From IMG/VR virus record IMGVR_UViG_3300000235_000002: a DNA stretch of 64,000 nt; one strand, 5' to 3'. Every line of letters begins with the position of its first letter. Position 1 is the first letter of the stretch. Shown here in pieces: positions 1 through 39,594 of the stretch. A model generated the notes under the pieces. The model searched no databases, was not told the origin of the DNA, and was given only the letters and a program-made list of their open reading frames with translations. Position numbers and translations under genes: made by a program. The stretch is from a virus.

Positions 1-123
1 TGATTCAGATGCGAGGGGATACCATGTAGATCCATCCGAATATTCAACTTTGCCAAGTGTCAATGTCAGTGGTTTGATAGAAGACGAGGAGACACCATTT
101 TTTCGTGTTTTTTTACGCGCCAT
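1..123 (-). CDS. 5' part of the 163-aa fibre tip protein, truncated by window start (full copy at 39103-39594)
   Basis: Same sequence as 39472-39594. Confidence 0.75.
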   Translation of the reverse strand, partial: MARKKTRKNGVSSSSIKPLTLTLGKVEYSDGSTWYPLASES

Positions 124-913
124 TATTGTATCGAATCATCCCTGCTACAAGTAAGGTTGGCCTCTGTGCCGTTGTTCCACCCGGCAGTGTTGTCGAAGCG
201 ATTCCGGGAAGAATAGGATTTGTTGCAAGACTGACCGTTGACGCACTGCCACTCGTCGTCACGGTAATCTGATTTGTTGTTCCTGAAACCGACTCAATAC
301 CGCTTTTAGCAAGCTTCACAAATGTAATGCTGCTCGTACCCACAGTCGTGACAGTGGCTGTCTGCATCCAAGCCGTAACGCCATTCACCGTTCCTGTTGC
401 AACAAAGATTGTATCACCAACAATCATCTGAGCAGCAGAATCAAAATCAGTCGCACGTGTTAAAACCCAAGGGGCGCTTGCTGTTCCGGCATTAGTTACC
501 GTATAGATCCCATTTTGAAAAGCTGTGCTTTGATCTTTGATCAGCACACGCGCGCCTACAGCAGGTGTTATACCATCAATCGTAAAAACCTGATTAGCTG
601 TACTTATCAGTGTTGCCCCAACGCCGGATGTACCATAAAAATAAGTAGCAAATAGACTCGTTGTCGTCGCTGATATACAGGGTTCATTACTAATTTTGGA
701 AATAGCATTAACAACATAACCTTCTGTTGCTAAATAATACCAGTTTGTCCCATCCGTGAATTCCGGTTTTCCTGAGGGTGTTGGAGGGATAGCCTTGAGA
801 CCTAATTTAGTCATAGCTCGAATGCCTTCAGGAGTGGGAACAAGAGGAATTCGGGTGTCTTTTCCCGAAGAATCGTCATCATAAATGTCATCTGTTTTGG
901 AAAGGTAACTCAT
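113..913 (-). CDS. Tail-fibre-like structural protein, middle module (~266 aa; track start 970, likely start MSYLSK at 913)
   Basis: Contains TIDGITPAVGARVLIKDQSTAFQNGIYTV...WVLTRATDFD, a motif I recognise from phage fibre proteins. Thr/Gly-rich; C-terminal GTTAQRP...GMIRYN. Confidence 0.72.
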   Translation of the reverse strand: MSYLSKTDDIYDDDSSGKDTRIPLVPTPEGIRAMTKLGLKAIPPTPSGKPEFTDGTNWYYLATEGYVVNAISKISNEPCISATTTSLFATYFYGTSGVGATLISTANQVFTIDGITPAVGARVLIKDQSTAFQNGIYTVTNAGTASAPWVLTRATDFDSAAQMIVGDTIFVATGTVNGVTAWMQTATVTTVGTSSITFVKLAKSGIESVSGTTNQITVTTSGSASTVSLATNPILPGIASTTLPGGTTAQRPTLLVAGMIRYNNGA

Positions 914-1112
914 TTTTTTTCCTTTAAAAATGGCGGAATTCATTATTAATAAATTACCATAAAACAGCAAAAAAGAAAATTCAAAAATACCAATTTATAC
1001 AATAATTTCTGTAAAAAAACTGTTTATTTGCAAAATGTTAGATCAAAAAATTTTCAAGACACTGTTTTGAAAAATCGTGTCTAACTACTCTCCAAAAAAA
1101 GAACATAATTCG

Positions 1113-2972
1113 TCAAGCAGGAGATGTGTTATATCTTATCATTCCGGAAATCGGTACAGAAGGACGCTGAGATGATGTTCCTTTAGGGATAATCATAGAT
1201 TCATTGCCTGGAAGTACCGCATTATTCTGAAAATATGTCGTGATGGGATTCAACAATCCTCCTGATCCATAAACGGCTCCTTGCAAGGTTATTCCTGTAT
1301 TGAGGAGAGTATTTAGGCTATTTTGCGCACTCGTCGCACTATTGGATGCGTTTGTTGCAGAGGTTTGAGATTGGGAAGCTGAAGAGGCTGCATCAGATGC
1401 TGAAGAAGAGGCACTAGAAGATGAGGAAGAAGCACTAAGGGCTGATGCCGCAGCAGCAACAGCTGATACGCCTGCACCTAAAGCTGATGCTGCCGCTGCC
1501 GCTGCTGATCCACTTGCAGCAGCAGCAGCCCCTGTGGCCTCTGCTGCTGCACCTGTAGCTTCTTCTGCTGCTGCTGTAGCTTCACTTGCGGATGCTGCTG
1601 CCTCCTCAGCTGACGCCGAAGCTTCATTTTTGAATGCTTCCGTTTCTGCCTTGATTTGCTCTAAAGTCTCTTTGGTTGCATAATCTTGATCGCGAATCGC
1701 CACTTCAATGCTACCATCTGCCGCCGCTTTCAAGATTTTTGGGGCAACTCCAACCAGTTGATTTAATGCCTGCGCATTGGGAAGACTATTATGGGACTGT
1801 TTTAAAATGTACGTCGCATCCACGGAAGGCATATTTGTGAAGGCAAGCTGTCGGTCTGTTGAAAGAGGAACATTACCAATATCCGTTAAGACTTGTCCTG
1901 TGGTGCTCACTGTATCGGGCATCACCCAATTGATATTCATCGCCACTGAAGCAGGTGCTTTTAAGCTGACATAGTTCGTATAGCGATGAGCAGGATTATA
2001 ATCATAAAAAATAAACTGACGCCCTTCCACTGTATTCAGAGATAAAACTTGCTGATCTGCTCTTATACTCCCTCCCGCTCCTCCCTGAACTGTAGCTAGT
2101 AGATCACGACACGTCACGGTATTGATTCCTGAAATATTATCGTGATCAGCATCAATATTGATAAGTTGAAGTTTCGATCTTGCAATCACCTTATCCCGTA
2201 AAACGATAGGAATAGTTCCATCCGCATATCCCTCATTGACCAGATCAAGATAATCTGTGCCAGGGGTCGCGTATTGGATGGTTTTTCCTGTTTTCTTCAG
2301 CATGCCATCCTGAAGATTAATCAAAAATTGTGATTTTGGCCATGTCGTTTGCACCAAGGCACTTCCCATGATAAATTCGCCAAGCAAAAAACGAGCATTG
2401 AGTAAAGCAATATCTGCTTCCACACCTAATAAAGCTGTTGATTCTTCAGGCCTATTGCTATCAGTTCCATGCCAAATTTTACCCCCAGAAATGGTTATAG
2501 GAGTAAGTGGGTCAATAGGGTTAGGAATGGTAATCGATGCTGTTCCTAAAGAAGGCAGATTAGATAAATTTATAGTTGCTTGAGGAGTTGCTATATTGTT
2601 GCCATTCCCCACAAAAAGATTTCCTGATGGAAGATAAGTGGATAAATAATCTGTTCCTGGAATAGCAATTTGAATCAGGCCACCTATATTCTTCATCATT
2701 CCGTCGTCAAGATCACTTAGAGCCTGGGCATTAGGAAAAGTAGAAACAGGCGTACTGATCACCACAGGAGCTTCAGAAATAGATTCAACCTGTTGCTGAA
2801 GAGATCTTACATCAATCGTTAAGTCTATTAGCTTGAAAGACGGCGTTGGTCGGTTATGCTTGTCACCGATCCAAACGTAACCACGCTCCAAATCTGGTAG
2901 TTGCAAATGTGATGCCAGAATGCCGGTGACAGGTGAGACGAACGGATCGGTATAGCCAGGAATATATTTCAT
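1113..2972 (-). CDS. Tail-fibre-like structural protein, proximal module (619 aa)
   Basis: Three internal PNAQAL...GTDY-type repeats, an Ala/Ser-rich coiled-coil-like stretch, C-terminal GTSSQRP...GMIRYNT. Start overlaps the patatin stop (TAATG). Confidence 0.65.
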   Translation of the reverse strand: MKYIPGYTDPFVSPVTGILASHLQLPDLERGYVWIGDKHNRPTPSFKLIDLTIDVRSLQQQVESISEAPVVISTPVSTFPNAQALSDLDDGMMKNIGGLIQIAIPGTDYLSTYLPSGNLFVGNGNNIATPQATINLSNLPSLGTASITIPNPIDPLTPITISGGKIWHGTDSNRPEESTALLGVEADIALLNARFLLGEFIMGSALVQTTWPKSQFLINLQDGMLKKTGKTIQYATPGTDYLDLVNEGYADGTIPIVLRDKVIARSKLQLINIDADHDNISGINTVTCRDLLATVQGGAGGSIRADQQVLSLNTVEGRQFIFYDYNPAHRYTNYVSLKAPASVAMNINWVMPDTVSTTGQVLTDIGNVPLSTDRQLAFTNMPSVDATYILKQSHNSLPNAQALNQLVGVAPKILKAAADGSIEVAIRDQDYATKETLEQIKAETEAFKNEASASAEEAAASASEATAAAEEATGAAAEATGAAAAASGSAAAAAASALGAGVSAVAAAASALSASSSSSSASSSASDAASSASQSQTSATNASNSATSAQNSLNTLLNTGITLQGAVYGSGGLLNPITTYFQNNAVLPGNESMIIPKGTSSQRPSVPISGMIRYNTSPA

Positions 2973-4105
2973 TATTCCCTCGCATTAAAATGGGCAATAA
3001 ATTTCTGAATGTTCAACAAATCAGCATCATATTGCGTCATCGCATATTGCTCTAGGTTCGCTAAATTTGCAGCAGAGTAGTTGTCTAAACTCGAATCTTG
3101 TCCCGGTAAAAATTGATACTGAAAGCGATTGAAAAAGATATCGTCATACACATCCGTTGCTTCAAATTCCATCACCTTCGCATTCAGTTCTTGTGGCCCG
3201 GGAATGAAAACGTTATCCATCAGATAGAAAATGTAGTCGACGTTATACGGTGCAATGCTATTCAGATTTTGCGTCAAAAACATCACCTGTTCTTTTTTAT
3301 CCGGATATTTTTTTAAAAGCTTTTGTCTGATTTTTTCGATTTCTTTTTTGGTTTCTTGTTCCAGCTCGGAATCAACGGTTTTCAATTTCAACGTCGTTTC
3401 CGGTATGAAGTCATTGTGCGCAACACCTGTACCGACGGAAAGAATGCAAAAACGTGCAACTCCGGGAAACATCTTCTTAGCTACCGAATAGGCAAGCGTT
3501 ACCGGATTGTTGACATAGACACCGCCGTCAATCATCGTATGGCTATTAACCGATGCAGGCGGAAAGTAAAGCGGCGCAGCACTTGTTGCAAGTCCAACAT
3601 CAACGACGGATCGACCGGCACCGCTCAAGAACGGTTCAAGACCTGAAATGTTGGAAAATATAGCGGCTTCATCTTCATGCGTATCCCACGCAGGAATGAT
3701 CACTTTTGTCAAAAGGGAGGAAAGAGGAAGTGTTTCACCAAAAACGTCTACTAAAGCTGTTCTGAGTGGAGCTTGAGCGTAAAAAGTTGATGGGTAGGTT
3801 GGTAATCCCATGATGACACTGAACTTGTAGACGGATAGCGGCAAGATAGAATTGTAGGCAAAAATACTAGAACCTTTACTTGCAAAAAACTGCCTCATCT
3901 CTTCAGGCGTTTTCCCATAAGCATATCCTAACGCCTGGATGCCACCAATACTTGTACCGGTAATAATATCAAATTCATCGTACAAGCGATTTGGCGCAAT
4001 GCCTGCGTCAAGGCAAAATCGCTTCAGAAAAGTAGCGGAAAAATATCCTCTCATACCGCCACCGTCCAAAGACAAGATCTTCACCGTTTTTGAAGATGAA
4101 TCCAT
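2972..4105 (-). CDS. Patatin-like phospholipase
   Basis: ILSLDGGGMRG glycine loop, GTSIG nucleophile elbow (GxSxG), DGG catalytic Asp motif. Confidence 0.93.
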   Translation of the reverse strand: MDSSSKTVKILSLDGGGMRGYFSATFLKRFCLDAGIAPNRLYDEFDIITGTSIGGIQALGYAYGKTPEEMRQFFASKGSSIFAYNSILPLSVYKFSVIMGLPTYPSTFYAQAPLRTALVDVFGETLPLSSLLTKVIIPAWDTHEDEAAIFSNISGLEPFLSGAGRSVVDVGLATSAAPLYFPPASVNSHTMIDGGVYVNNPVTLAYSVAKKMFPGVARFCILSVGTGVAHNDFIPETTLKLKTVDSELEQETKKEIEKIRQKLLKKYPDKKEQVMFLTQNLNSIAPYNVDYIFYLMDNVFIPGPQELNAKVMEFEATDVYDDIFFNRFQYQFLPGQDSSLDNYSAANLANLEQYAMTQYDADLLNIQKFIAHFNARE

Positions 4106-4107
4106 TG

Positions 4108-4377
4108 TTATCGTCTTGGCCTTCCTGCCTCGATTCTTACACTTCTTCTTTTGCTTTCCAAAGAATTAGAACTACTTTGGTATCTACCTAAACGCCTTTC
4201 CGGAAAATATGACGGCGGATATGCCGCTGCCCCCGGATACGGATGTAGTCGTTCTTCTTCGTCAACAACGTCATCCACAACTGTTCTTGCCTCTTCTTTA
4301 AAAAAAACAGCCGGAAGACATCCAACTAGGAAAGATCCTGCTAAAAAGATACATGTTACCAATTTTAAGTTACTCAT
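4108..4377 (-). CDS. Small predicted lipoprotein (89 aa)
   Basis: Basic N-terminus, hydrophobic stretch and LVGC lipobox (Cys20); packed tightly between terL and patatin. Confidence 0.62.
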   Translation of the reverse strand: MSNLKLVTCIFLAGSFLVGCLPAVFFKEEARTVVDDVVDEEERLHPYPGAAAYPPSYFPERRLGRYQSSSNSLESKRRSVRIEAGRPRR

Positions 4378-4386: not shown

Positions 4387-5814
4387 TTAAATTAAACCTG
4401 AATTTGCCCATTTTGGGGTAGTATCGTAAGCAAACTCCACAGCTGTTCTTGCTTGCGCTAAACCATTCAGCGCATAGAACATCGCATCCAAGCAATGATC
4501 ATTCTTCTTAATGATGATGCCGTTCTCATCTCTGGCGTATTGCCGAAACTCATTCACCGCATGCCGACAACCAACACCTTTTTCACTATGGAATATCTTG
4601 AATCTGTCCCCACGAACCCGTTCATAGATTTCATCAATCACCGCTTCTTTGGCATTGTTCGTTTTGTGAGCTTTGACTAGACGAAGCCCCGACTTAATCT
4701 GCAGAAAATCTAACGTCTTTTCTTTTGTGTGCATGTTTTCACCGGCACCTGCGGGATCAACCATGCCCGTACACCAGTCAGGTACCATCTGAAGGATATT
4801 GTTTGCATGTTCGGTCGGTGTCGCATTACTCAGCTTGTAATCTCGTACCACATAGACAATATCCGAATCACGGTCATGAGCAAGAAGTACACAACCCCAT
4901 GTCCCTCCTGAGGAGGCCGATGGATCAAGCCCGTAAACGCAAGCGAAATGCTTTGGAATCTCAAACGGTTCAACGAACAATTCCGATTCCATCATCGTGA
5001 AAACCTTGCCTTGGCCAAACACAGGCACGCCGTGTTCACGCGCTTCTAATTGCCATTTTGGAATGGATTTTCTAAGGTGATCGATCGTTTCCTGTTTTAA
5101 ATACGGATTGTCTTGCCAAGATGCAGTAATATAGAAACGGCCGTCCTTGACTTCACCTTCCGCACCGTTGTCCAGAAAGTGCGCAATCAAATCGTCCTTG
5201 CCTTTTTCTGGCCACATACTCGCCACCAGAAACGTCTTCTCCTTGTCAAACTCCGAGATCCGAACCAACGCTTCTTGATAGACACGAAAGTTCGGCAACT
5301 CATCCATATGGATAAAATCCGCCTTCACACCTTGCCAAGACGACTCACCTTGTTGAAAAGCCTTAAACTTGAGTTCTGACCTGCCACCGGACACATGGTT
5401 GATCCACACCGTATCCCAAGCTCCTGCCACGTTGGTGTGTGTTTTGTCGGCAAGGTAGCTTTGGTGCAATATCGGTGGCATCGTGCCGTCCAAATCACCT
5501 AAAAACATCTTTCGTTGAAGAATATCGCGCGTATCTTTGAGGCTCACGGAAGAAGAAATGGCATTGATCGGACGTGAAAAACGATACCCCTTCCACCAAG
5601 GCGGATAAACACCTGTGAGGTGAAATGCCAGTTCCATGCAAACGGCATTCGTCTTGCCTGTTCTATTGCCGCCAAGAAACAGACGTTCTTTTGCCAAAAG
5701 ACTGGCTTCATGAAATTGTGCTTGCTTCGGTGTCGGCTTGTAAAATAAAAAGCTTTTTTCCGCGAAAGCCGTCAACTGATCAACTGAAAAACCAAGATGG
5801 GAAACGCCGCTCAA
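4387..5814 (-). CDS. terL: Terminase large subunit
   Basis: Walker A GGNRTGKT, Walker B IHMDE, nuclease motifs GLDPS and DHCLDA; TTG start. Confidence 0.93.
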   Translation of the reverse strand: MSGVSHLGFSVDQLTAFAEKSFLFYKPTPKQAQFHEASLLAKERLFLGGNRTGKTNAVCMELAFHLTGVYPPWWKGYRFSRPINAISSSVSLKDTRDILQRKMFLGDLDGTMPPILHQSYLADKTHTNVAGAWDTVWINHVSGGRSELKFKAFQQGESSWQGVKADFIHMDELPNFRVYQEALVRISEFDKEKTFLVASMWPEKGKDDLIAHFLDNGAEGEVKDGRFYITASWQDNPYLKQETIDHLRKSIPKWQLEAREHGVPVFGQGKVFTMMESELFVEPFEIPKHFACVYGLDPSASSGGTWGCVLLAHDRDSDIVYVVRDYKLSNATPTEHANNILQMVPDWCTGMVDPAGAGENMHTKEKTLDFLQIKSGLRLVKAHKTNNAKEAVIDEIYERVRGDRFKIFHSEKGVGCRHAVNEFRQYARDENGIIIKKNDHCLDAMFYALNGLAQARTAVEFAYDTTPKWANSGLI

Positions 5815-6043: not shown

Positions 6044-6919
6044 TCAGCTATTTTTCAGCAGCTCTTCAATCTTGTCCATTGACAAACCGGTAGCTTCAAC
6101 GATCACAGGAGACGCGACACCTTGATTCAACAGTGCCATTGCCACCTGCAATATGCCTTTTTCGATACCTTTTTCGATACCTTTTTCGATACCTTCATCA
6201 TACCGCTGATCCATCGACGCTTTGTATGATCCTGCATACTTCTCCGCCTGATCATAGGTTAACAGCTCTTCCTCATTCCAGGAGAAGCGGTTCAACTCTT
6301 GATACACACGCTCAATGATCTCATCAGAGCCGATAATCGACGCTAAATCCTCTTCCCTCGTCTCTTCCGCGTGCAAGAAGAAGTAGCTCCATTTTTCGAC
6401 CATGTTTGATAGATCGTCTATCCGCTTTTTGAACTTCGGCAATTCCAAAAATGTAAATGAAAAATCCTTCAAATCGTTGGACTGGGTCACTCTATCCAAA
6501 ATGATATGATCGGACTTATACGCCTCATTCTTCGGAAACATGATGAAGTCTGCTATCGCAATGAAGATGATCTCTTTCAAATCCGCATAAGCACCGCCGA
6601 TTTTCATCTGGGAACTATAGGCTTTGGCGGCATAATACTGCGCTCGTTTCTCAAAGCCCTTTTCCTTGGCAACCTGTAGCTCAACAATGTACTGATGACC
6701 GTGTTCATCCCGACACAACACATCAACGATACTCGTCTTCTGCGCCGCCGTTTCAGGATCTTGAACGGTTTTAAGAAACGTCACGTCCGTAATCGGGTGT
6801 CTCTCTCTGAACGTTACCATGTCATTCAAAAAGTGAATCAGAATATCTTTGTTTTTTTCAGTCCCAAAGATCTTGCGAAAACAAACGTCATTCTTTGGGT
6901 CAAGAAATTTAGACAACAT
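6044..6919 (-). CDS. Rpn-family recombination-promoting nuclease / PD-(D/E)XK putative transposase (track start 6961)
   Basis: LDPKNDVCFRKIFG N-terminus, IVDVLC...YIVELQ, KRAQYYAAKAY, C-terminal EKGI repeats. Confidence 0.9.
   Translation of the reverse strand: MLSKFLDPKNDVCFRKIFGTEKNKDILIHFLNDMVTFRERHPITDVTFLKTVQDPETAAQKTSIVDVLCRDEHGHQYIVELQVAKEKGFEKRAQYYAAKAYSSQMKIGGAYADLKEIIFIAIADFIMFPKNEAYKSDHIILDRVTQSNDLKDFSFTFLELPKFKKRIDDLSNMVEKWSYFFLHAEETREEDLASIIGSDEIIERVYQELNRFSWNEEELLTYDQAEKYAGSYKASMDQRYDEGIEKGIEKGIEKGILQVAMALLNQGVASPVIVEATGLSMDKIEELLKNS
6156..6195 (-). repeat. 12-bp tandem repeat (3 copies) encoding EKGI in Rpn
   Basis: cctttttcgata x3 on the plus strand. Confidence 0.85.
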
Positions 6920-7111
6920 GAAATTAACCTTTCTGCAATTGATTTTTCCAAACAATAGCATGAACGGATTCCAAGAAGAAAGACGATCCTGTTATCCACA
7001 GAATCTGTGAGTAAGTTTGTGAATACGTATAGAGTCGACATACGTAACTCCACCCGGTTCCGCCGGAATCAACGATTTGCTCAAGAAATAGGCAGATAAA
7101 GTTCTTAAATT

Positions 7112-7324: not shown

Positions 7325-8116
7325 TCACATTTTGGCTGAAATGCCAACAAGCAAACCTTTTTGTGAACCAAACGTCTTGTTGTGAGAAATGTATGGCTTC
7401 CCAAAAAGTGATACATCTTTTGTCAAATCGTAAGCCACTTTAAATGATGCTGATTTTGTATCCAATTTAAAAGATGCGTTCTTCGTGTTGCGGCTGTGTT
7501 CGTAATGAATCATCGGTGTCACGGAAAGAGGAGAACCGGAGGAAAGTTTCATAGCCGTACCTAAATCAAACCCTACTAACACATTGTCAAGCGGGTTTTT
7601 GCTAACAAAAGCATTGGCTAATACAGAAAAGCATGGATTCACTTTAAAGGCGTTATCCGAAAAAAGAGTCATAGAAAAGCCACCAAGGTCTATTTCTTCT
7701 TTTCCTGATACGTAACCTTTAGAGTTGATTATTCCTGCCCTAATACCTGTTACTGTTGACCAAACCTGACCGGCGTATTTTCCAAATACACCCACTTCTT
7801 GTTTATTAAAAGAAAAACGCTTGTCTCCAGATCTTTGGCTTTGAATTTTTTTTTCAAGATTCATTTTGTGAGAAAGTGAGAACCCAAAAGCATCGTGACC
7901 GATATATTCCAAATATACTTTTGGCATGTGATTCGTTTTGGTTTTTATACCGGATTGAGTGGGGTATTTGTTTTGTGACATCTCGTTAGATATTGTTGCT
8001 ACAAAGTTTCTGTGGTCATTTTTAGCTTCAATACCTTTGTTGATTTCTGCGTGATTATCAACAGTGGCAAAAGCAGTACAGGCCATCAAGGCTAAAAGTG
8101 TTGCTGTTTTAATCAA
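7325..8116 (-). CDS. Secreted, probable outer-membrane beta-barrel protein (263 aa)
   Basis: TTG start after GGAG RBS; signal peptide ending AFA; alternating hydrophobic beta-strand pattern; C-terminal LLVGISAKM strand. Confidence 0.6.
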   Translation of the reverse strand: MIKTATLLALMACTAFATVDNHAEINKGIEAKNDHRNFVATISNEMSQNKYPTQSGIKTKTNHMPKVYLEYIGHDAFGFSLSHKMNLEKKIQSQRSGDKRFSFNKQEVGVFGKYAGQVWSTVTGIRAGIINSKGYVSGKEEIDLGGFSMTLFSDNAFKVNPCFSVLANAFVSKNPLDNVLVGFDLGTAMKLSSGSPLSVTPMIHYEHSRNTKNASFKLDTKSASFKVAYDLTKDVSLFGKPYISHNKTFGSQKGLLVGISAKM

Positions 8117-8835: not shown

Positions 8836-8930
8836 CATAACAAAATATATAGACTTTATGATAAAGCTATTATGTTATGGTTTTTGTTATGCGTCAAGAG
8901 GGTTTATCAAAATTTATACTTTTTGTTATG
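8836..8930. promoter_or_regulatory. Candidate res site / resolvase promoter region
   Basis: CATAACAAAA (8836-8845) with two inverse copies TTTTGTTATG (8882-8891, 8921-8930) directly upstream of the resolvase, the usual position of res. Confidence 0.45.
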
Positions 8931-9300
8931 ATTCATCATCTGTCACGTTGATCACGGCTGGTGTTCTGTTCTTAGCACGCATCAACAGCTGCCAAAGATC
9001 TGAATGCTCATCTTGGGACATGTTATTTAGCAGCGGTGCCATGTGAACGTTTAGATTGTTTTGTGTGGTGTTCTTTTCAACGGGTGCGTAAGTACCGGCT
9101 TTAGGATAGAACATTTCCATCGCAAGCTTAATTGCCCATGGTAGTTCTTCTTTGAGAGCTTTGTTCAGTAGCAGCTTGGCTACACTTTCAATGCTTTTCT
9201 CGTTCTTCTTGCAAAACTCTTGCACCATTTCAGATCGAGAATCAATTCTCTTTCTCGGCCTACCGGCGGGATTAGCATTATTACCAGGTTTGAATACCAT
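8926..9300 (-). CDS. terS: Probable terminase small subunit (track start 9327)
   Basis: N-terminal FKPGNNANPAGRP motif typical of DUF5681-type small terminases; size; same strand as and upstream of terL. Confidence 0.65.
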   Translation of the reverse strand: MVFKPGNNANPAGRPRKRIDSRSEMVQEFCKKNEKSIESVAKLLLNKALKEELPWAIKLAMEMFYPKAGTYAPVEKNTTQNNLNVHMAPLLNNMSQDEHSDLWQLLMRAKNRTPAVINVTDDES

Positions 9301-9637
9301 TGGCACATCTCTTTTATTAAAAATCAATCCATCGTGAGCGTTTTCTATCCTTCATCACTATTCCAAACAAGAATCTCTAGCATTTCTCATCCCTGCACTC
9401 ACCAACTTCGATGAGTACGTTCAAACGCTTACCGCCGAACACATCTTTAGCAAATCCGCCATTTCTACGCATCATCAACACTACATTTCCAGAGAACGCA
9501 ACATCATGACAACGAGATTGACAACGAACAAGCAACTAACAAATTCAATAGTTTCCAAGAAAGAACACTCACGATCGTTTCTCGATTAATCATAGCACAT
9601 TTCATGCTTTCAAAGAAGGACAATGAGACTCAAAAAG

Positions 9638-9980
9638 TTATCCACAGGAAAACCAATATCTTTCGTTTTTCGACGAAACAAAAACGTAACATTGACGAAC
9701 AATAAACGAATAATAATACATACTAATATATATATAAGTATATAATATATATATATTTTTTTTATTAAATAGATTATCTTTCGTCAATTTTGTTACAAAT
9801 ATTTCTCAATGAAAAATTCACTCTTGAGATATATTTTGACGAACAATAATTTTTGACAGCATTAAGTTATTGATTTAATTGTATTTTACTGGGAATATCT
9901 TTCGTTTATTGTTCGTAAATGTTTCGTTTATTTTTCGTTTGAAAAACGAAAGATAATTTAGAATTTAATAAAACGAAAGA
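9638..9980. promoter_or_regulatory. Origin-like intergenic region: DnaA box, repeated motifs, AT-rich core
   Basis: TTATCCACA at 9638-9646. ATCTTTCGT at 9658, 9776, 9897 and inverted at 9946. 23-bp inverted repeat 9688-9710 / 9901-9923 (1 mismatch) around a (TA)n-rich core. Confidence 0.5.
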
Positions 9981-18198: not shown

Positions 18199-18358
18199 AG
18201 TTTGGCAAATCGTCCTGGAGAAGTTCCTTATAAAATATCCTAAACATTCAAGATCATTAGAGGTGAATCGCGGGTATAAAACAAGAAATCGACTAAGAAG
18301 AAATAAACAAAAGAGATGGCAAAAAATCAAAGAAACGATAGAGAAATACGATGTCTAA
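18179..18358 (+). CDS. Small basic hypothetical protein
   Basis: GGAG RBS before ATG 18179; overlaps both neighbours. Confidence 0.4.
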   Translation: MLKPISKVWQIVLEKFLIKYPKHSRSLEVNRGYKTRNRLRRNKQKRWQKIKETIEKYDV

Positions 18359-29766: not shown

Positions 29767-31122
29767 CTAAATATCGTACACAATCATGTCAAATCCGCCA
29801 TAAAGGTAATTGTTGTTAGAGTCTCTTACCACAATGTCTACCTGTGTCGTGCTTTGTGCGTCGTTGCTAGCTGAAATTGCGTAAACACTTACAGATGTAT
29901 CATTAGGTGTCAAAATGACAATAGCGTTTGCAGAAGAAGCTGCAGTTGTGAACACTACCCTAAATATACGTTTGTTATTAGGAAGTTCTACTTGCGTAAC
30001 GCTAGTTATGTTGAGGGACTTTAGTATAGTCGCATTTGAGGCCACCGAAAGTATAGCAAACGGTGCGATTTGACCTGCATTTTGCAGTTTTGTTTTTGGA
30101 ATGGTACTGTTGGCAATTAAAGCACCTGTGATGGTACCATCAAGAATTTGAACATTTGTGACGGTATTGTTGGCAAGTTTAGCACCTGTGATGGAAAGGT
30201 TCGCATATAAAGCAGTAGTGATGGTACCATCGGCAATTTGAGCATTTGTGACGGTATTGTTGGCAAGTTTAGCACCTGTGATAGAAAGGTTCGCATATAA
30301 AGCAGTAGTGATGGTACCGTCAGCAATTTGAACATTTGTGACGGTATTGTTGGCAAGTTTAGCACCTGTGATGGAACCGTTCGCATATAGAGCCGTTGTG
30401 ATGGTACCGTCAGCAATTTGAACATTTGTGACGGTATTATTTAAAAGCTTAGCTCCGACAACGGATCCATCTATGAGTTTTGCACCGGAAACAGAAGTGC
30501 TGATGAGTTTTGTACCGTCAATGCTATTGTCGACAATCTTAGATCCTGTAATCGTTAAATTAGCAATTTGACTCCCTGTGATCGTTGCGTCAGCTACTTT
30601 AACTCCTGTAACTGCTTTATCCTGTAGATGGCTAGTGATGATGCTGTTATTGGAAATTTTGTTAGTTGTGACGGCGTTATTTGCTATTTTTGATGTTGTA
30701 ACGGCACCGTCGTATATTTTCGTCCCCCAAACCGCATTGTTTTCTATGTGCTGCGTTTGGATTGCTTGCGGTTGAATCTTAGCCGATGTCACTACCGCAT
30801 CAATGATGTTGTTTGTTCCAACAGAGGCAACGCCAAGGTTGACCTGATTAATCGGTGTCCAACTGATATTGCCGTTGCCGTCTGTCGTGAGGAGAAAATT
30901 CGCATTCAATGGATCATTTGCACCCGGAAGCGCACCGACAACGATGCCGTTGATTTCAGCAGATTGCGTATTTAGAAGATCAATGATCCGATTCATATCG
31001 CCGTCTAGCTGTTGAGCTGTCGGCGGAAACTGTCCGAGGTTCTCATATCGATTGTAGTTAGGTAAGATCTGCTCAGGTTGATACGGAATAGCCGGTCTGC
31101 TATTATTTGTTGGAAGTGGCAT
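29767..31122 (-). CDS. Tail fibre protein with decapeptide repeats (451 aa)
   Basis: Many [ST][IV]TxxK[IL]A-type 10-aa repeats; N-terminal anchor; directly after the nozzle gene. Confidence 0.75.
   Translation of the reverse strand: MPLPTNNSRPAIPYQPEQILPNYNRYENLGQFPPTAQQLDGDMNRIIDLLNTQSAEINGIVVGALPGANDPLNANFLLTTDGNGNISWTPINQVNLGVASVGTNNIIDAVVTSAKIQPQAIQTQHIENNAVWGTKIYDGAVTTSKIANNAVTTNKISNNSIITSHLQDKAVTGVKVADATITGSQIANLTITGSKIVDNSIDGTKLISTSVSGAKLIDGSVVGAKLLNNTVTNVQIADGTITTALYANGSITGAKLANNTVTNVQIADGTITTALYANLSITGAKLANNTVTNAQIADGTITTALYANLSITGAKLANNTVTNVQILDGTITGALIANSTIPKTKLQNAGQIAPFAILSVASNATILKSLNITSVTQVELPNNKRIFRVVFTTAASSANAIVILTPNDTSVSVYAISASNDAQSTTQVDIVVRDSNNNYLYGGFDMIVYDI
30131..30440 (-). 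repeat. 90-bp tandem repeat (~3.4 copies) encoding NNTVTNVQIADGTITTALYANxSITGAKLA
   Basis: agcacctgtgat recurs at 30181, 30271, 30361; catttgtgacggtatt recurs every 90 bp. Confidence 0.88.
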
Positions 31123-33252: not shown

Positions 33253-33891
33253 TTATACATTGCTAAATGTTGAAAGGGAATTTGGCCGTCTTGAGTAGAA
33301 ATACGAAAGCAGAAATGATTTTCCGGTGTTCCATCTCTCTCGAGCTTCACCTTCTTTCACGGTGTTTTTAAATCCGCCTTCCTGTTGAAACAGGTAGTAC
33401 AACGCGCCGTCAACTAACACGGGATGAAATGCAACTGGATAGGGAATGTCTGTTTCTTCGCTATCGTTTGTCAATGAAGTCGGCTGTGGTGTGTGCCACA
33501 CTTTTACTTCGATGATATTGGACGGTACCGGGTAAAAATTAAGCTGATCCTTGATCAAATAAAAACTGTTTGGCTTTCCGATTGCACTAAAACTCGGATC
33601 TTCAACAATGAGATCTTGAATGGATTTTTGTGAAAGTGTTCGTTTGTCGGTATTATCAAAAACGCTGGTCATTACAAACGGAATTTGAGAAAGAGTGATC
33701 ACCGGTGATTCAGCAGACGTACTTAAAATTTCGGCCACCAATAAATCATCGTTCCAATTCGCTGTTTCTTGATACAATTGAAAATGGGCAAGGTTCAGAT
33801 ACTGCAAGAAAATAGCTCTCTCAGCGGTAGTGACATTGTCACTACCGACTGAGAGAGTACCCATAAGCGTGATGAGATCGCTTACCTGCAT
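33253..33891 (-). CDS. Head-tail adaptor / tail tubular protein A-like (212 aa)
   Basis: FLQYLNLA helix and DIPYPVAFHPVLVDGALYY motif; conserved position. Confidence 0.7.
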   Translation of the reverse strand: MQVSDLITLMGTLSVGSDNVTTAERAIFLQYLNLAHFQLYQETANWNDDLLVAEILSTSAESPVITLSQIPFVMTSVFDNTDKRTLSQKSIQDLIVEDPSFSAIGKPNSFYLIKDQLNFYPVPSNIIEVKVWHTPQPTSLTNDSEETDIPYPVAFHPVLVDGALYYLFQQEGGFKNTVKEGEARERWNTGKSFLLSYFYSRRPNSLSTFSNV

Positions 33892-34250
33892 TAATAGTTG
33901 CCTATCACCAAAAGTAACTTGATGACGCTGTTGGCCGCAATAGCCGTACCGCCGTTCGCCACAGCCACGTTAATTATTTTTCCGGTCGCATCAATCGTCA
34001 CTGATGTTGTGGCCGCAGCAACAGGAACATTGATAGCTCCTGCATTACTTAGGACTTGGAAATTCATGACGGATTGTATTTTACCCGCTCCTGTCCACTG
34101 TAGAATATTTAAGTTGGTGTTAGCCGCTACACCGGCCACACAAGTGATATCAAAAGCAATGAGCTGCGAATCTTTGCCGGTAGAACCGGTTTTAATATTG
34201 TCGATCGGATCGGTAGTCGAATCCTGGACGTAACGAATAGTTGCTGTCAT
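33891..34250 (-). CDS. Small virion protein, possible capsid decoration (track start 34301)
   Basis: Directly after the capsid gene; AGGAG RBS before ATG 34250; beta-rich. Confidence 0.5.
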   Translation of the reverse strand: MTATIRYVQDSTTDPIDNIKTGSTGKDSQLIAFDITCVAGVAANTNLNILQWTGAGKIQSVMNFQVLSNAGAINVPVAAATTSVTIDATGKIINVAVANGGTAIAANSVIKLLLVIGNY

Positions 34251-34260
34251 TTTTTTCTCC

Positions 34261-35463
34261 TTAGAAACTGACGAATGAATGGATGATACCCTGTTCAACA
34301 ACCGTGTTTGAGCCTGCTTGTGCGCCTACGGTTGCTGCGTATTGACTTGGGAACTGAAGCATCTTCTGACCACGGAATTCATGACCGAAGTAGAGCTGAA
34401 TGCGTTCAACAAGATCGTTTTCCATGCCGAGCATCGGCTCCTGCGCCCATCCGAGAGAAAGCGCACCCGCTCCCATAAAGATGTTCCAGGCCGCTGTTTT
34501 GTTGCCATCTTGACTTGTCAGCGCGTATTGGTATAGGTCACGGCATGAATAGATCGCAATCCCACGATACTCACCGACATAGTCTGCACCGTTCAACATT
34601 TGCGGCGTATTTTCAGGATCGATGACAACGCCGCGATTGAATGTGGAATTGGCAAACAACGGATCTGAAAACAAACTTGTTAATGTTTGTGGGTGGGCTA
34701 AATAGATATATTTGTTCATTGGAAAGCCGGCTTTGCTACGCACATACGCCGGTTGAATAGCATCTTCAAGTCCAACGGCAGATCCACCGCGTTCTGCATA
34801 TTGTTTTAGAGCCTCAAGGTGAGACGCTGAAAGTCCTGAAGTCGCAGGTGTTGTTGCTGCCGGTAATGACATACCGTTAATAAGAGTCGGAAACGTAGCG
34901 TTTGCCTGATAAGCCGCACGAGTAGGAACTAATCCTGTAGCCAGCTTGAAAACAGCACGGTCATAGGAAGGTAGCGTTCCGGCAACGTTGCAGTTAGCCG
35001 TTTTAATAGTCGGATACGCAGTGACTGTCATTGCATTGAACAGATCGTAGTTTAAGGCACGGGAAAACGCTTCAACCAACTGGGATCGTGCATAAGGCGG
35101 CAAATCAATAGGTGTCCCAAAATCGAGAATGTCATAGCCTTTGATTTGAGCGAGAAAACTCTTAAAATCCACATCAACTTTGTCGTAATCGACTCGTTGC
35201 TGCATAGCATTACCCCGACGTTGATCGAAGTTGGTGATCGGATTTTTATAATCGAGGGCTTGGAGTTTGCCCATCCGATATTGCAAACCTTCACCTTTTT
35301 TGAGCTGCTTGCGAACGATGGGACGACTAGGTTCATCACCCATTAAATTGAAAAGAGGCGTGATCTGAACCCACTCACGAAAAAGCTGGCTAGAAACACT
35401 AAATGGAAATAAGTTTTGATTAATGCCGTTGTAACCTGCGGCCGGTACCGGATAGAGTGCCAT
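34261..35463 (-). CDS. Major capsid protein (DUF4043/N4-gp56-like)
   Basis: 400 aa; follows the scaffold; KGEGLQYRMGKL and FMGAGALSLGW patterns. Confidence 0.8.
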   Translation of the reverse strand: MALYPVPAAGYNGINQNLFPFSVSSQLFREWVQITPLFNLMGDEPSRPIVRKQLKKGEGLQYRMGKLQALDYKNPITNFDQRRGNAMQQRVDYDKVDVDFKSFLAQIKGYDILDFGTPIDLPPYARSQLVEAFSRALNYDLFNAMTVTAYPTIKTANCNVAGTLPSYDRAVFKLATGLVPTRAAYQANATFPTLINGMSLPAATTPATSGLSASHLEALKQYAERGGSAVGLEDAIQPAYVRSKAGFPMNKYIYLAHPQTLTSLFSDPLFANSTFNRGVVIDPENTPQMLNGADYVGEYRGIAIYSCRDLYQYALTSQDGNKTAAWNIFMGAGALSLGWAQEPMLGMENDLVERIQLYFGHEFRGQKMLQFPSQYAATVGAQAGSNTVVEQGIIHSFVSF

Positions 35464-35660: not shown

Positions 35661-36548
35661 TTACCGTCTAGGTCGATCTCTTTCTTTGAAGATGGAACCG
35701 ACAATGTCGGCATCAGGTGAATTTTCAGTTTCACCCATCTCTCCAAGTCGATAGATCGGCTTATCATAGTCTTCGTATTGTGCCAGTCTTTTCAACAACT
35801 TGTCAACTTTTTTCTTCAAATTTTCATTGTTTTTTTGAATGTCTGAGATGTAGTTTTTTATGCCCCCGGACTTCATGATGTCACGATACGAAGAGTCAAG
35901 AGATTCTTGACCGAGTGAGAGAATCTTCTTCGTCAATTTCAGTGGTTCTTCAACTAAATCTTTCAACTCATCAAAAAGATCGGCTACCTCTTCTTGAGAA
36001 GATGTACCGAGAAGATACTCAAAGGCGTTCAACTTTTCTTCCAGTTGAGGATCATCGCTATATTTTCGCAAATGCTCTAATTCACCGTTAACAACCTTGA
36101 AAATAGGAGCAAAGGGGTGTGGTGATACGGATGGTGTCTCGTCTTCTTCATCTTGATCAATTTGAATAGATTCCAAAACGCTACGACCTTCATCCTCGTT
36201 CAAAACGCCTTCCATAATCATGTTTTGGACAGTCTTGATCGCTGTTTTGACTTTCTGAGCATTCTTGCGTCCAAAGCTCCGATTAGTCTGCAGTTCTTTG
36301 CGCGTCTTTTCCAATTCATTTTTGAGTTTTACTAATTCGCTATCTTCTTGCGGTTCATCATCAATGTCATCATCATCAGAAGGCTTTTCTTTCTGTTTTG
36401 TCACTGAAAGAGGTGTTTCTTGCTTTTCTTCTTTCACCGGTTCAGCAGTCGGCCGATCCCTTCCTTCAAACAGAGAAGAGATTGTCTCATTCACGGATTC
36501 TTGTGGTATTTCTTTTTCTTCCATATTTTCTTTTAGGTCACTCATCAA
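35661..36548 (-). CDS. Probable scaffolding protein (295 aa)
   Basis: Very acidic N-terminus and coiled coils; lies between portal and capsid. Confidence 0.68.
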   Translation of the reverse strand: MMSDLKENMEEKEIPQESVNETISSLFEGRDRPTAEPVKEEKQETPLSVTKQKEKPSDDDDIDDEPQEDSELVKLKNELEKTRKELQTNRSFGRKNAQKVKTAIKTVQNMIMEGVLNEDEGRSVLESIQIDQDEEDETPSVSPHPFAPIFKVVNGELEHLRKYSDDPQLEEKLNAFEYLLGTSSQEEVADLFDELKDLVEEPLKLTKKILSLGQESLDSSYRDIMKSGGIKNYISDIQKNNENLKKKVDKLLKRLAQYEDYDKPIYRLGEMGETENSPDADIVGSIFKERDRPRR

Positions 36549-36555: not shown

Positions 36556-36909
36556 CTAAAGTTCAGTTAATTCTCGGTAGTTAACAAAGATATTAAAACT
36601 ATTGCCGGCATAGTCACTGTTGGCGTATAGCAGATCACCCGGCTCTAACGTCAACGTCATGTTCAAAAGCGCATCAATACGCTCAAACGGCTGAAGCGGC
36701 AGTTGTTGTGCCAATACAAACGTTGTTTCAATGCCGATCTCAATTTCTCTTGCAACAGAAAGGCTCACCAAAATGATAGCATCCGTCAGATTGCTCAAAA
36801 TGATACCGTCCACGATGCATGTGTGTTGATCGTTTCCAAACACTAGTGTCGGTGTGCTGTTGATGTTGGCTGTCGGCGACATCTTCCAGTTAACGAAAGA
36901 TCCGCTCAT
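36556..36909 (-). CDS. Hypothetical virion-associated protein (117 aa)
   Basis: ATGA overlap with the portal stop; beta-rich. Confidence 0.55.
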   Translation of the reverse strand: MSGSFVNWKMSPTANINSTPTLVFGNDQHTCIVDGIILSNLTDAIILVSLSVAREIEIGIETTFVLAQQLPLQPFERIDALLNMTLTLEPGDLLYANSDYAGNSFNIFVNYRELTEL

Positions 36910-38735
36910 TGAGTACCGCCTGACGGAATGGGCAATCCATTAGCTGCAGGTGCACCCGCAAACTGAACAGGTGCGCCTCTGCCCGCAACTCCCTGCTCCA
37001 TCGTCGTCTTTTCTTGCAATGCCTGACGCATCTCAGCAGCTATTTTCTCAGGGTTTCTCACGCCGAGACGGCGCATCAAGTCCGGAGAAAGCATGAGCCA
37101 CTGTGCATGAGCATTGGATAGCAACGATTCAAACGTCGCGCGCTGTTCCTCAAACGTGCTTTGGTAATCAGGCACTTCTTCAACGTACAAAGACACGGGT
37201 AGTGTTCGAATATCGTTAAAGAAAAAAGCTTTTCCGTTCACTTCACGCTTCAAATTCATCACAATGATGTCACGTTCTTCAGGTGAGAGAATTTCCACAG
37301 AAATATTTTCGTCACCGCCGCTTTGAATCATATCAAGAATGAACCGTGCTTCTCGTTTCTTCATGGAAGAGAAATTGTCGAAAGCAAACACGTTGTTGCG
37401 AACGCTATTGATTTGACGAATGTTTTGAGAAACACCGCTCGTGGCATTCGTTGGGATCCCTAGCATTTCATCATAGATGCCCGTCACACGCTGCATCAAA
37501 TCCAGATACAGTTGAACGATTTTGATCTGTTCTTCACCAAGCGGCGCATTAGAGGTAATCTGAAATTTTGACTCTTTCGGCAGCACAATCACCGAATCTG
37601 TATTCTTTAATTCTTGTCGTATTTTCTCAATGTCTTTGCCCGGCATTGGATTGCCTTCAAAAATCACACGCGATGAATTGATTGCATGAACCGATTTGGT
37701 GATTCTCACATTGCAATCTCTTTGGATGTCTTTCATCGATTCCAACAAGCCATACGGAACACCGGTCTTGAACCGTCGCTGATAGACAATCGGAATATAG
37801 CTAAAGTCTTTTTGATTCGGAAATGTCGCATCAAGGGGGGCGTGTTCAAGCAGTGTATTGTCCAGAAAAAGAGTTCGCATTATTCGCTCGCCCTTTTTTT
37901 CTTCAATATCGGCTTCTTTTTCCGCTAATTCCTCTGCTTCTTCCATATTGAATGTTTCAAACGGTCGACCGTATGAATCAATACCCGTATAATATTTATG
38001 CGGGACTTTATATTGAACTTCGACCACAAGAACACGACTTTGATTGATTGGCGTAGCAACACCCATGCTTCCACTATCCGTATAGGTACTATTTCTGTCC
38101 ATCATTTCAGGCGAAAAAATACCTTCGTAATAGGAAAAGTTTTCAAAATCAACGTTAGGTGCCTTTGGCCAGTAAGATTTGACCATATCCGGTCGCATCC
38201 AACGCTTGCGACAAACGTATTTCATCGCGGTATACTGGGGCGTTAGATCATCGGGATCAGGAATGACATTGAATGGATGAATGTAGTCGTAGAAAATGCG
38301 ACCGTCATCTTGAGCGAGATGACTCCAGCCAATGCCGCAGATCAGAGAGTCTCGGAACTTTAATGAGCCTTGATAGGGAATTGACTCCGACTCTTGGATG
38401 TAAAACAACTGGTGCGTCAGTGCTTCTGCCAGTCGATCATCTTCATCTCTGTACGAATGAGATCTAACCGCACATCGATATCGAGATTGAATTTCCACAC
38501 CTGAAAGGTTGTCGATGTATCCTTTGCAAATGTTCACCGTGATCGGACTCTGAAGCCGCTGTTGTAGTTTTTGAAGATCAACGGTAGACCACTGCTCCGT
38601 TCCATCGTAAAAACCATAATCACTCATACATTTAGTACGAAATTCCTGTGATGATGGATGAAGATTCGCTATCCGAAAATAGTCTTGCGCTTTTTGCAAG
38701 GCATCTTGTCGTGTTTTAGAAATAGGAAATGACAT
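36906..38735 (-). CDS. Portal protein (P22-like)
   Basis: DYGFYDGTEQW, ITVNICKGYIDNLSGVE, PYGLLESMKDIQRDCN, GIPTNATSG motifs. Confidence 0.88.
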   Translation of the reverse strand: MSFPISKTRQDALQKAQDYFRIANLHPSSQEFRTKCMSDYGFYDGTEQWSTVDLQKLQQRLQSPITVNICKGYIDNLSGVEIQSRYRCAVRSHSYRDEDDRLAEALTHQLFYIQESESIPYQGSLKFRDSLICGIGWSHLAQDDGRIFYDYIHPFNVIPDPDDLTPQYTAMKYVCRKRWMRPDMVKSYWPKAPNVDFENFSYYEGIFSPEMMDRNSTYTDSGSMGVATPINQSRVLVVEVQYKVPHKYYTGIDSYGRPFETFNMEEAEELAEKEADIEEKKGERIMRTLFLDNTLLEHAPLDATFPNQKDFSYIPIVYQRRFKTGVPYGLLESMKDIQRDCNVRITKSVHAINSSRVIFEGNPMPGKDIEKIRQELKNTDSVIVLPKESKFQITSNAPLGEEQIKIVQLYLDLMQRVTGIYDEMLGIPTNATSGVSQNIRQINSVRNNVFAFDNFSSMKKREARFILDMIQSGGDENISVEILSPEERDIIVMNLKREVNGKAFFFNDIRTLPVSLYVEEVPDYQSTFEEQRATFESLLSNAHAQWLMLSPDLMRRLGVRNPEKIAAEMRQALQEKTTMEQGVAGRGAPVQFAGAPAANGLPIPSGGTQ

Positions 38736-38761
38736 TGATCATCCAAGGTGAAGAAACGCTT

Positions 38762-38986: not shown

Positions 38987-39056
38987 TTTCGTTATCCATT
39001 AAAGTAAAAGGTTAAACATGAAAAAAGACTTGTAAAAATCTTCTTTTTAATACCTT

Positions 39057-39085
39057 ATTATACCTGAAAAATGCTATTAAGACAA
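39057..39085 (-). promoter_or_regulatory. Sigma70-like promoter facing the portal-capsid-tail operon
   Basis: TTGTCT-17 nt-TATAAT on the minus strand. Confidence 0.55.
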
Positions 39086-39102
39086 TGATTTAACATCATT
39101 TT

Positions 39103-39594
39103 TTAAGTAATATTCGTTAATTGAAAGTTATTAACCACTTGGACTAAATAGAGTTTCCCAATTTCACCGGAAATTTTGAAAATGAGACAATCAACGGCAT
39201 TAGCTGTACTCGATAGAGGCATCAATGTTGATGTATTCCCTGCCCTGTAAATATTAGATATATTTAGAGATCTGTTGCCATTAGCATCTTGCTTTGCAAA
39301 TAACGTCAACGTTGATGGTCCGGCTGTATTCCAGCTAATATTCGTGATGACGCAATTTCCGGAAAGCGTTAGAAAAGCAACATTGCCAAGTGTTGCATTC
39401 CAACTCATAGAACTCGTAAAATTAAGTGTCTGGTATTTATCTAATCTTTGATCAGTGGTGTTTTCTACCCATGATTCAGATGCGAGGGGATACCATGTAG
39501 ATCCATCCGAATATTCAACTTTGCCAAGTGTCAATGTCAGTGGTTTGATAGAAGACGAGGAGACACCATTTTTTCGTGTTTTTTTACGCGCCAT
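39103..39594 (-). CDS. Tail-fibre tip / receptor-binding-like module (163 aa)
   Basis: N-terminal GKVEYSDGSTWYPLASE half-motif; C-terminal beta domain (LTLSGN...QDANGNRSL...STANAVD) resembling phage fibre ends. Confidence 0.62.
   Translation of the reverse strand: MARKKTRKNGVSSSSIKPLTLTLGKVEYSDGSTWYPLASESWVENTTDQRLDKYQTLNFTSSMSWNATLGNVAFLTLSGNCVITNISWNTAGPSTLTLFAKQDANGNRSLNISNIYRAGNTSTLMPLSSTANAVDCLIFKISGEIGKLYLVQVVNNFQLTNIT

Follow-up and report, generated by a model that had tools for sequence, protein, structure and literature searches.

The DNA analysed here (the window, 64,000 nucleotides from the IMG/VR virus record IMGVR_UViG_3300000235_000002) contains one 39,471 bp element that is probably a functional temperate podovirus of a Paracaedibacterales endosymbiont, with a prophage that is kept as a circular plasmid and not integrated. 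An earlier note on this DNA, made from the letters alone, had proposed a temperate phage maintained as a plasmid in an intracellular bacterium. This proposal is the best-supported reading of the present analysis, the plasmid state being the part that we infer, because prophage cousins are bounded by attachment (att) sites, integrase and Rep_3 exclude each other among the relatives, the Rep_3 initiator falls in a clade with Reps from the same host order, and the MFS transporter and Rpn nuclease genes trace to these hosts.

Unit and replicon

Window positions 1-24529 are identical to positions 39472-64000 (0 mismatches). The record is one complete circular or terminally redundant unit (1-39471) that is read 1.6 times. 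Logan contig L101 (15,248 bp, run SRR1560850), an independent assembly, matches window 45656-30409 at 100% identity and spans the record join, which lies inside a fibre gene. Two contigs from two JGI metagenomes (3300042143 and 3300042114) are 100% identical to unit pieces 5082-7692 and 5798-8110. Since these contigs match independently, the circle is not an artefact of a single assembly. Megablast of the unit against INPHARED phages and against plasmids gave no match.

The phage unit carries a Rep_3 initiator with iterons and DnaA boxes, as the earlier note had described. Two Rep_3 domains, tandem iterons, DnaA boxes and an AT-rich region (73% AT) beside the rep gene make up an iteron-type theta replicon (Table 1). 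Four exact 21-bp iterons (21402-21476), with a degenerate copy before them, lie directly upstream of the rep start. They are flanked by perfect DnaA boxes at 21376 and, inverted, at 21584. The DnaA-box 9-mer TTATCCACA occurs four times in the unit versus approximately 0.4 expected. The origin (oriV) of G001, a sibling record described below, has the same layout. No tyrosine integrase was found in the six frames of the unit with a hidden Markov model (HMM) derived from integrases of the cousins, which did recover the pKAP298 recombinase as a positive control. The earlier note was correct on the absence of an integrase, and it had overlooked the only recombinase in the unit, a 184-aa serine recombinase of the resolvase type.

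Packaging and virion genes

The packaging and virion genes (TerL, portal, capsid, adaptor, nozzle, fibres and, by position, the scaffold and ejection-like genes) are all open. Family matches and the nozzle fold agree with the apparently complete podovirus gene set of the earlier note. The TerS assignment is putative (DUF5681), and the labels "scaffold" and "ejection-like" come from gene position and synteny only; neither the scaffold candidate (Pfam, PHROGs) nor the three large proteins of 640, 418 and 433 aa gave a family match. Homologues of these three large proteins are found in syntenic position in the two described relatives, MAnkyphage (30%) and plasmid pKAP298 (23-31%), and in prophage cousins. 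On the minus strand the late genes run in the order portal, 117-aa protein, scaffold, capsid, 136-aa protein, adaptor, nozzle, fibre/spike, GNAT acetyltransferase and the three large proteins. Past the portal and across the join come three fibre modules, patatin, the lipobox protein and TerL, and past TerL follow Rpn, the secreted 263-aa protein, the serine resolvase and DUF5681. MAnkyphage and the prophage cousins likewise have a DUF5681 gene beside their terminase region.

The P22_portal and SU10_adaptor matches together with the nozzle fold indicate a short tail of the T7/P22/SU10 type, and no tape-measure, tube or sheath family was found in any open reading frame (ORF) by Pfam and PHROGs. 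The nozzle was modelled with AlphaFold2 (AF2) using 32 homologues. Each of the top 30 Foldseek matches of the model in PDB is a nozzle chain or a tail complex of a podovirus; they include cyanophage A4, SU10, T7 gp12 and P22 gp10 (E 1e-18 to 1e-9) as well as Sf6, GP4 and crAss001 structures. PDB sequence and profile searches with nozzle, adaptor and capsid were empty or gave chance-level matches only. The capsid, expected to have the HK97 fold if the element belongs to the Caudoviricetes, was assigned by its sequence family; its AF2 model has a predicted local distance difference test (pLDDT) score of 33 and its PDB profile search was empty. Capsid homologues with 66-98% identity occur in 17 IMG/VR records. 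Comparison of the window with G001 gave ratios of nonsynonymous to synonymous substitution rates (dN/dS) of 0.04-0.25 in the packaging and virion genes and of 0.09 in rep; these genes are under purifying selection.

Integrase and Rep_3 among the relatives

G001 (IMGVR_UViG_3300037487_002876) is a collinear sibling of 41.5 kb with direct terminal repeats and virion proteins 94-99% identical to those of the window. It differs from the window in a different MFS gene at the equivalent slot, in its divergent fibres and in lacking the resolvase, the methyltransferase and ProQ. A second sibling, L196, has a Rep of 85% identity. In both siblings Rep_3 is found at the early/late junction, as in the window. 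G001 has two Rep_3 genes (34278-34706 and 15253-15684); the second lies between portal and fibre genes and has a single DnaA box upstream, with no exact tandem iterons detected. Fifteen more IMG/VR records encode capsids of 66-87% identity.

The virion module is also found within large contigs of three Paracaedibacterales genomes (G018, G023 and G037). Capsid, portal and TerL of these prophage cousins are 72-79% identical to those of the window. Two of them have clean boundaries: in G023 a 51-bp direct repeat, with one copy in tRNA-Lys(CTT), encloses 41.3 kb (C1:28525-69881), and in G037 a 49-bp repeat in tRNA-Thr(TGT) encloses 46.2 kb (C1:300114-346354). A tyrosine integrase of about 390 aa is encoded just inside attL in each. 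As these two cousins are integrated with att sites, the lineage is temperate. The window differs from G023 and G037 in having neither an integrase nor attL/attR in a chromosome.

Rep_3 was found in the window, G001 (two copies), G075, G076 and L196, and a full-length integrase in G068, G069, G072, G074 and the prophages; not a single case of both together was found among the relatives surveyed. The junction that holds Rep_3, oriV and ProQ in the window, next to the distal end of the virion module, is where G018 and G023 have their integrase. G075 (direct terminal repeats; capsid 78% and Rep_3 48% identical) has its own, unrelated 21-bp iterons upstream of rep and only a 200-aa tyrosine recombinase, 1.4 kb from Rep_3, which is plausibly an analogue of the window resolvase. 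G080, a complete record with direct terminal repeats, carries neither integrase nor Rep_3. One backbone thus occurs with a swapped lifestyle module: integrase and att sites, Rep_3 and iterons, or neither. The G023 prophage keeps a phage replication module (AAA_25, DEAD helicase and AAA_24). Because it has these replication genes of its own, Rep_3 is an added module and not the sole replication system. No homologues of the 640-aa and 418-aa proteins were found in G023, and its prophage may therefore be partly defective.

Host and origin of the replicon

The host is most likely a member of the Paracaedibacterales (Holosporales sensu lato), which are endosymbionts of protists. The MFS protein shows 60-71% identity to genes of Ca. 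Paracaedibacter symbiosus, Ca. Odyssella, Ca. Finniella and many Paracaedibacteraceae metagenome-assembled genomes (MAGs). Paracaedibacterales genomes have Rpn homologues in multiple copies (best 64%), and portal homologues of 71-74% identity are present in 6 of 62 genomes of the order. The best-match check of MFS and Rpn proposed by the earlier note therefore points to this order. The note had described such genes as abundant in Rickettsiales and Holosporales; the Holosporales part of this statement stands and Rickettsiales can be dropped as the host group.

Rep homologues (42-50%) were detected in Paracaedibacterales MAGs on small contigs of 4.6-20.4 kb, which have no match to any window phage gene. 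One of them, 6,121 bp long, has a 75-bp terminal overlap and assembles as a circle. In a maximum-likelihood tree the phage-borne Reps and two small-contig Paracaedibacterales Reps form one clade (support 99/98), the answer given by the Rep phylogeny that had been suggested. A Ca. Megaira plasmid Rep falls outside it, and farthest away are the plasmid Reps of Methylomagnum and Geobacillus. Wang & Wu 2017 (PMC5751055) reported that Ca. Paracaedibacter acanthamoebae and Ca. P. symbiosus have one plasmid each, whose type is unclear; no link to the element can be claimed. None of the observations that the earlier note had listed as contrary to its proposal (chromosomal integration with att sites, tight clustering with a described genus, cargo from free-living hosts) was made for the element.

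Proposed life cycle and alternative explanations

Family knowledge suggests the following cycle. In lysogeny Rep_3 would bind the four 21-bp iterons and host DnaA the two flanking boxes; the AT-rich stretch would melt and the host replisome would perform theta replication. Plasmid multimers would be resolved by the 184-aa serine resolvase. Upon induction the primase-helicase, AAA_24 ATPase, exonuclease and RuvC would drive replication and concatemer processing. DUF5681 and TerL would package the DNA via the P22-type portal, and adaptor, nozzle, fibres and the three internal proteins would complete the short-tailed virion. Since no endolysin is recognisable, we propose that patatin and the lipoprotein of the late operon may disrupt the membrane at exit. 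MFS, Rpn and the secreted protein would be exchangeable lysogenic-conversion cargo.

Several observations weigh against a plasmid prophage of this kind. A circular assembly is equally expected from a terminally redundant virion genome. No ParA/ParB or toxin-antitoxin match was found (Pfam, NCBIfam, PADLOC and tblastn with pKAP298 ParA), and several ORFs are without annotation. Endolysin/lysozyme, holin and repressor were not recognised in Pfam, PHROGs and NCBIfam scans of the unit. Rep_3-like initiators are present in phage databases (phrog_4402), the closest siblings are devoid of the resolvase, and the ProQ gene adjoining oriV has an in-frame stop. The host was assigned via relatives and cargo, not by physical linkage.

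The main rival explanation is a virulent or pseudolysogenic phage with no plasmid stage, in which Rep_3, iterons and DnaA boxes would be an early theta origin comparable to lambda O/ori and the circle would reflect terminal redundancy. It would account for the unrecognised partition, addiction and repressor genes and for the Rep_3-like proteins in PHROGs, and it is consistent with the IMG/VR relatives with direct terminal repeats and with G080. We consider it unlikely, because Rep_3 and full-length integrase are never found together, Rep_3 occupies the junction where G018 and G023 have the integrase, and a separate primase-helicase module already supplies phage replication. The clustering of Rep with Reps of small phage-free contigs from the same host order, the presence of a resolvase, and conversion-type cargo (MFS and Rpn) typical of temperate elements also argue for the plasmid prophage.

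There is still less to be said for a plasmid of phage origin that has lost the ability to form infectious virions, similar to pKAP298 or a domesticated particle system. pKAP298 shows that the backbone can persist as a plasmid, and lysis genes are not recognisable in the element; but the virion and packaging genes are open, full length compared with those of the siblings, and have the low dN/dS values given above. No transposon insertions (found in pKAP298) or truncated core genes were found in the unit, and in G001 a near-identical virion module stands next to cargo and fibres that have diverged, which is in keeping with a phage that is actively spreading. An integrated prophage or chromosomal island wrongly circularised by assembly, the state of the cousins notwithstanding, is very improbable: the independent assembly spans the join within a fibre gene, no integrase, tRNA gene or att-like long direct repeat was found in the unit, and typical host housekeeping genes are not among its 39 called genes.

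Other genes and features of the element

Coordinates of the features are collected in Table 1.

Table 1. Features of the element in window coordinates (percentages are amino acid identities unless stated otherwise).
Feature	Position	Strand	Evidence
Whole circular unit	1..39471		39,471 bp, GC 40.6%, about 88% coding; exact wrap
285-aa tail fibre module	113..970	-	PHROG tail-fibre and virion-structural families, down to 5.8e-23
619-aa tail fibre	1113..2972	-	phrog_3279 tail fibre, weak; N-terminus 23% to MAnkyphage tail fibre
Patatin-like phospholipase, conserved late gene	2972..4105	-	Pfam Patatin 1.5e-28; PADLOC phospholipase effector model 3e-56
89-aa proline-rich lipobox protein, putatively spanin-like	4108..4377	-	Signal peptide and Cys; 51-92% in several relatives
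Large terminase (TerL)	4387..5814	-	Terminase_6N/6C; phrog_2; 38% to MAnkyphage, 35% to pKAP298
Rpn-family PD-(D/E)XK nuclease (cargo)	6044..6961	-	PDDEXK_2 6.4e-52
263-aa secreted protein (cargo)	7325..8116	-	Signal-peptide-like N-terminus; in G001 only, 81%
Small serine recombinase, resolvase/invertase type, 184 aa	8272..8826	-	Resolvase 1e-38 and HTH
DUF5681 protein, putative TerS	8926..9327	-	DUF5681 1.3e-6
Repeat-rich, AT-rich divergent intergenic region	9600..10000		Between DUF5681 and MFS; 79% conserved in G001
ProP-like MFS transporter (cargo)	10386..11738	+	MFS_1/Sugar_tr
Primase-helicase (phage replication)	13022..15385	+	PriCT_2 7e-20; phrog_3022 DNA primase 7.8e-39
AAA_24 ATPase	15382..16188	+	AAA_24 6e-34; prophage cousin has AAA_24 too
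PD-(D/E)XK exonuclease	17488..18198	+	PDDEXK_1/YqaJ
RuvC-like Holliday junction resolvase	18351..18824	+	phrog_159 1.6e-29; 57-62% in relatives
Orphan N6/N4 DNA methyltransferase	18821..19954	+	N6_N4_Mtase 7e-46; PADLOC MTase_II
Rep_3 replication initiator	20381..21337	-	Rep3_N 3e-34 and Rep3_C 5.5e-13; both winged-helix domains
oriV	21376..21592		DnaA box, 4 x 21-bp iterons, AT-rich stretch, inverted DnaA box
ProQ/FinO-domain gene, in-frame TGA at 21854	21650..22189	+	ProQ 1.9e-18, distal ORF only
Three large proteins (640, 418, 433 aa), ejection/internal virion by position	24924..29393	-	Syntenic homologues
GNAT acetyltransferase within virion module	29395..29754	-	Acetyltransf_1 8e-5; 25-34% in relatives
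451-aa repeat-containing tail fibre/spike	29767..31122	-	phrog_892 tail fibre 1.4e-43
Tail nozzle, 707 aa	31126..33249	-	AF2 pLDDT 87.8, predicted template modelling score (pTM) 0.86; at least 118 homologous clusters
Head-to-tail adaptor	33253..33891	-	SU10_adaptor 6e-13
136-aa conserved virion-module protein	33891..34301	-	Viral-only unnamed clusters; 34-80% in relatives, 31% in pKAP298
Major capsid protein	34261..35463	-	phrog_334 2.8e-14; Phage_capsid_3 23.4 bits vs cut-off 23
Scaffold, by position	35661..36548	-	Between portal and capsid; 37-99% in relatives, 29% in pKAP298
Portal	36906..38735	-	P22_portal 5.7e-77; phrog_156 3.7e-82; PDB 8jov portal 1e-37
163-aa distal fibre module, across record join	39103..39594	-	ORF list; 62-73% in G001, G066, G068, G069, G070

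The earlier note had counted patatin as endosymbiont cargo. Of 15 relatives, 11 have it (30-98% identity), as does MAnkyphage (27%), and its position is the fibre/terminase region throughout; we therefore regard it as a conserved late gene of the lineage and not host cargo (dN/dS 0.12 between window and G001). Candidates for lysis are patatin, the lipobox protein, for which no family match was found, and an 85-aa protein with one N-terminal transmembrane helix at 24185-24442. A T4-type lysozyme is present in G077, G080, G081 and MAnkyphage, and the sub-lineage of the window is without it. As in the window, neither endolysin nor holin was recognised in its closest relatives.

Among the cargo genes, Rpn has a dN/dS of 0.11 (window versus G001) and MFS genes recur in relatives at 24-59% identity. 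The 263-aa gene and Rpn are separated by a hairpin (7108-7161) with a 25-nt perfect stem and flanking A-run and T-run, which resembles a bidirectional terminator and would set the cargo genes apart as separate units. A promoter/terminator scan of the unit gave chance-level results only. The serine resolvase is absent from the 17 IMG/VR relatives; MAnkyphage has a serine resolvase at the equivalent slot (31%). Proteins of 227, 160, 159, 243, 162, 100 and 263 aa had no match in NCBIfam, PHROGs and PADLOC. The accessory regions at 8-12 kb and 20-24 kb have a GC content of 35-37%, and most of the late-gene block has 39-48%.

The in-frame TGA of the ProQ gene falls at the position of an aromatic residue in E. 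coli ProQ, and the first 23 or so positions of the Pfam domain lie upstream of it. TGA is the stop codon of 12 of 39 genes; an alternative genetic code (TGA=Trp) is excluded by this count and the TGA is a true stop. It is either a nonsense mutation or a site of local read-through. The ProQ gene is absent from all relatives examined. A perfect DnaA box lies at 9638 in the intergenic region at 9600-10000, along with a (TA)n tract, an imperfect inverted repeat of 50 nt and six TATCTTTCGT-type 10-mers; this region is a candidate for an operator, a second (lytic) origin or a res site.

Among the virion genes, the one for the 451-aa fibre/spike differs most between window and G001 (65% aa identity), and it contains six in-register copies of a 30-nt periodic repeat at 30086-30445. 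No family match was found for the 163-aa fibre module. MAnkyphage has an annotated acetyltransferase at the slot equivalent to the window GNAT gene. A relationship of the 136-aa protein to the MAnkyphage transglycosylase was ruled out (no similarity).

R-body genes and other cargo in the cousins

Cargo within the phage lineage is highly variable. Four RebB-family genes (PF11747, 1e-30 to 1e-6) are found in G023 at C1:46541-47955 (= L122:6541-7955) and three RebB matches in G037 at about C1 302344-303322. The Reb proteins of these prophages are 42-55% identical to those of pKAP298. No RebB match was found in the window, G001, G075 or MAnkyphage, and the window is without the reb operon that marks R-body (kappa) plasmids. 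Comparison of the gene sequences indicates that reb operons ride on one podovirus backbone in two bacterial classes. In the study by Raymann et al. (2013, PMC3583457) phages yielded no Reb homologue, and homologues of pKAP298 were not found in other taxa that have Reb; a 2026 Reb phylogeny paper does not mention phages.

The G023 prophage also encodes a 2,652-aa polymorphic toxin (DUF637 and Tox-URI2) with an adjacent Imm39 immunity gene (L122:11044-19504, C1:51044-59504); a rhodanese and an MFS transporter are found in the same region. A nozzle homologue (36%) is present on a 131 kb contig of Cysteiniphilum halobium, which belongs to the same family, Fastidiosibacteraceae, as Caedibacter taeniospiralis, the host of pKAP298. 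This hints at more relatives of the pKAP298 backbone in the Fastidiosibacteraceae.

Significance

To our knowledge, hardly any phages have been characterised from Holosporales and Paracaedibacterales, endosymbionts that are genetically intractable. For vectors and transduction, a native 1.2 kb rep-oriV cassette together with a phage competent for packaging would offer an obvious point of departure. MAnkyphage, pKAP298 and uncultured freshwater viral contigs, so far treated separately, become connected. The reb genes are tied to an identifiable phage backbone common to the cousins and pKAP298, and the reb-bearing, att-bounded cousins bear on the phage link for reb loci that was sought in vain in 2013 (PMC3583457). 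A podovirus type is added to the phage-plasmids, among which such types are rare (PMC7969092).

Comparison with known systems

The earlier note had stated that few phages of this host group are described apart from Wolbachia WO. Two described relatives of the element exist, the phage MAnkyphage and the phage-derived plasmid pKAP298. MAnkyphage_25.80 (OP381185.1) of Megaira polyxenophila, described by George et al. 2023 (Curr Biol 33:1982) as cited in PMC10925606, is the best phage-database match for the window portal and TerL. Like the element it is circular (38.4 kb), with an annotated replication initiator and no annotated integrase. It shares the order of portal, fibre, patatin, terminase, resolvase and DUF5681, followed by ejection-like genes, acetyltransferase, gp12/gp11-type tail tubular proteins and capsid. 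Its host is likewise an intracellular alphaproteobacterium of a protist, but belongs to the order Rickettsiales and not Paracaedibacterales. The two share 23-38% aa identity over 10 genes with no nucleotide similarity, and MAnkyphage falls outside the high genome-wide nucleotide similarity expected within a genus. It differs in having an unrelated early module (Bet/exonuclease), an initiator with no detectable similarity to the window Rep_3, and lysozyme, RelE/ParE pair and ankyrin genes.

pKAP298 (NC_005915.1) of Caedibacter taeniospiralis is the sole PLSDB plasmid with the capsid type of the window. The whole packaging and virion module is syntenic at 23-38% identity (TerL 35%, portal 38%, nozzle 38%, capsid 28%, ejection-like proteins 23-31%). 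Both are circular and carry an Rpn-family gene, and pKAP298 is an extrachromosomal element of a protist endosymbiont. It differs in its gammaproteobacterial host, its reb R-body operon, Tn3 and IS interruptions, and ParA plus tyrosine recombinase with no Rep_3 detectably similar to that of the window. In the accounts cited in PMC7297999 and PMC3583457, pKAP298 has been regarded as phage-derived since Jeblick & Kusch 2005, and not as a live phage. The G023 and G037 prophages share the virion gene order of the window (nozzle and adaptor about 48-50%) and, in one of them, MFS cargo. They have tyrosine integrase and tRNA att sites in place of Rep_3/oriV, other replication genes and reb operons, and the patatin and fibre set was not detected in them. 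It is conceivable, although we hold this only tentatively, that the element is a live, reb-less member of the suspected "kappa phage" lineage, that this podovirus family switches between integrase, Rep_3-plasmid and ParA-plasmid lifestyles while transferring toxins, transporters and R-body operons between symbionts of the Alpha- and the Gammaproteobacteria, and that pKAP298 is a decayed offshoot.

According to Pfeifer et al. (2021, PMC7969092), an integrase is not required in phage-plasmids, and recombinases that resolve dimers may be present. Measured by the features used in that work, the element has intact packaging and virion genes, a plasmid-type replication module and no integration module, and partition or other stable-inheritance functions were not found. 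Like P1, N15 and SSU5 it combines a phage core with a plasmid replicon, no integrase, a possible dimer-resolving recombinase and variable accessory genes. Unlike them it is of podovirus type, has no sequence relationship to them and no recognised partition system, and its assigned host is an obligate intracellular lineage. As MAnkyphage and pKAP298 are syntenic with the element and yet only 23-38% identical at the aa level, its sequence places it as a new, distant member of a lineage with two described members; it would also be a new member of the phage-plasmid class.

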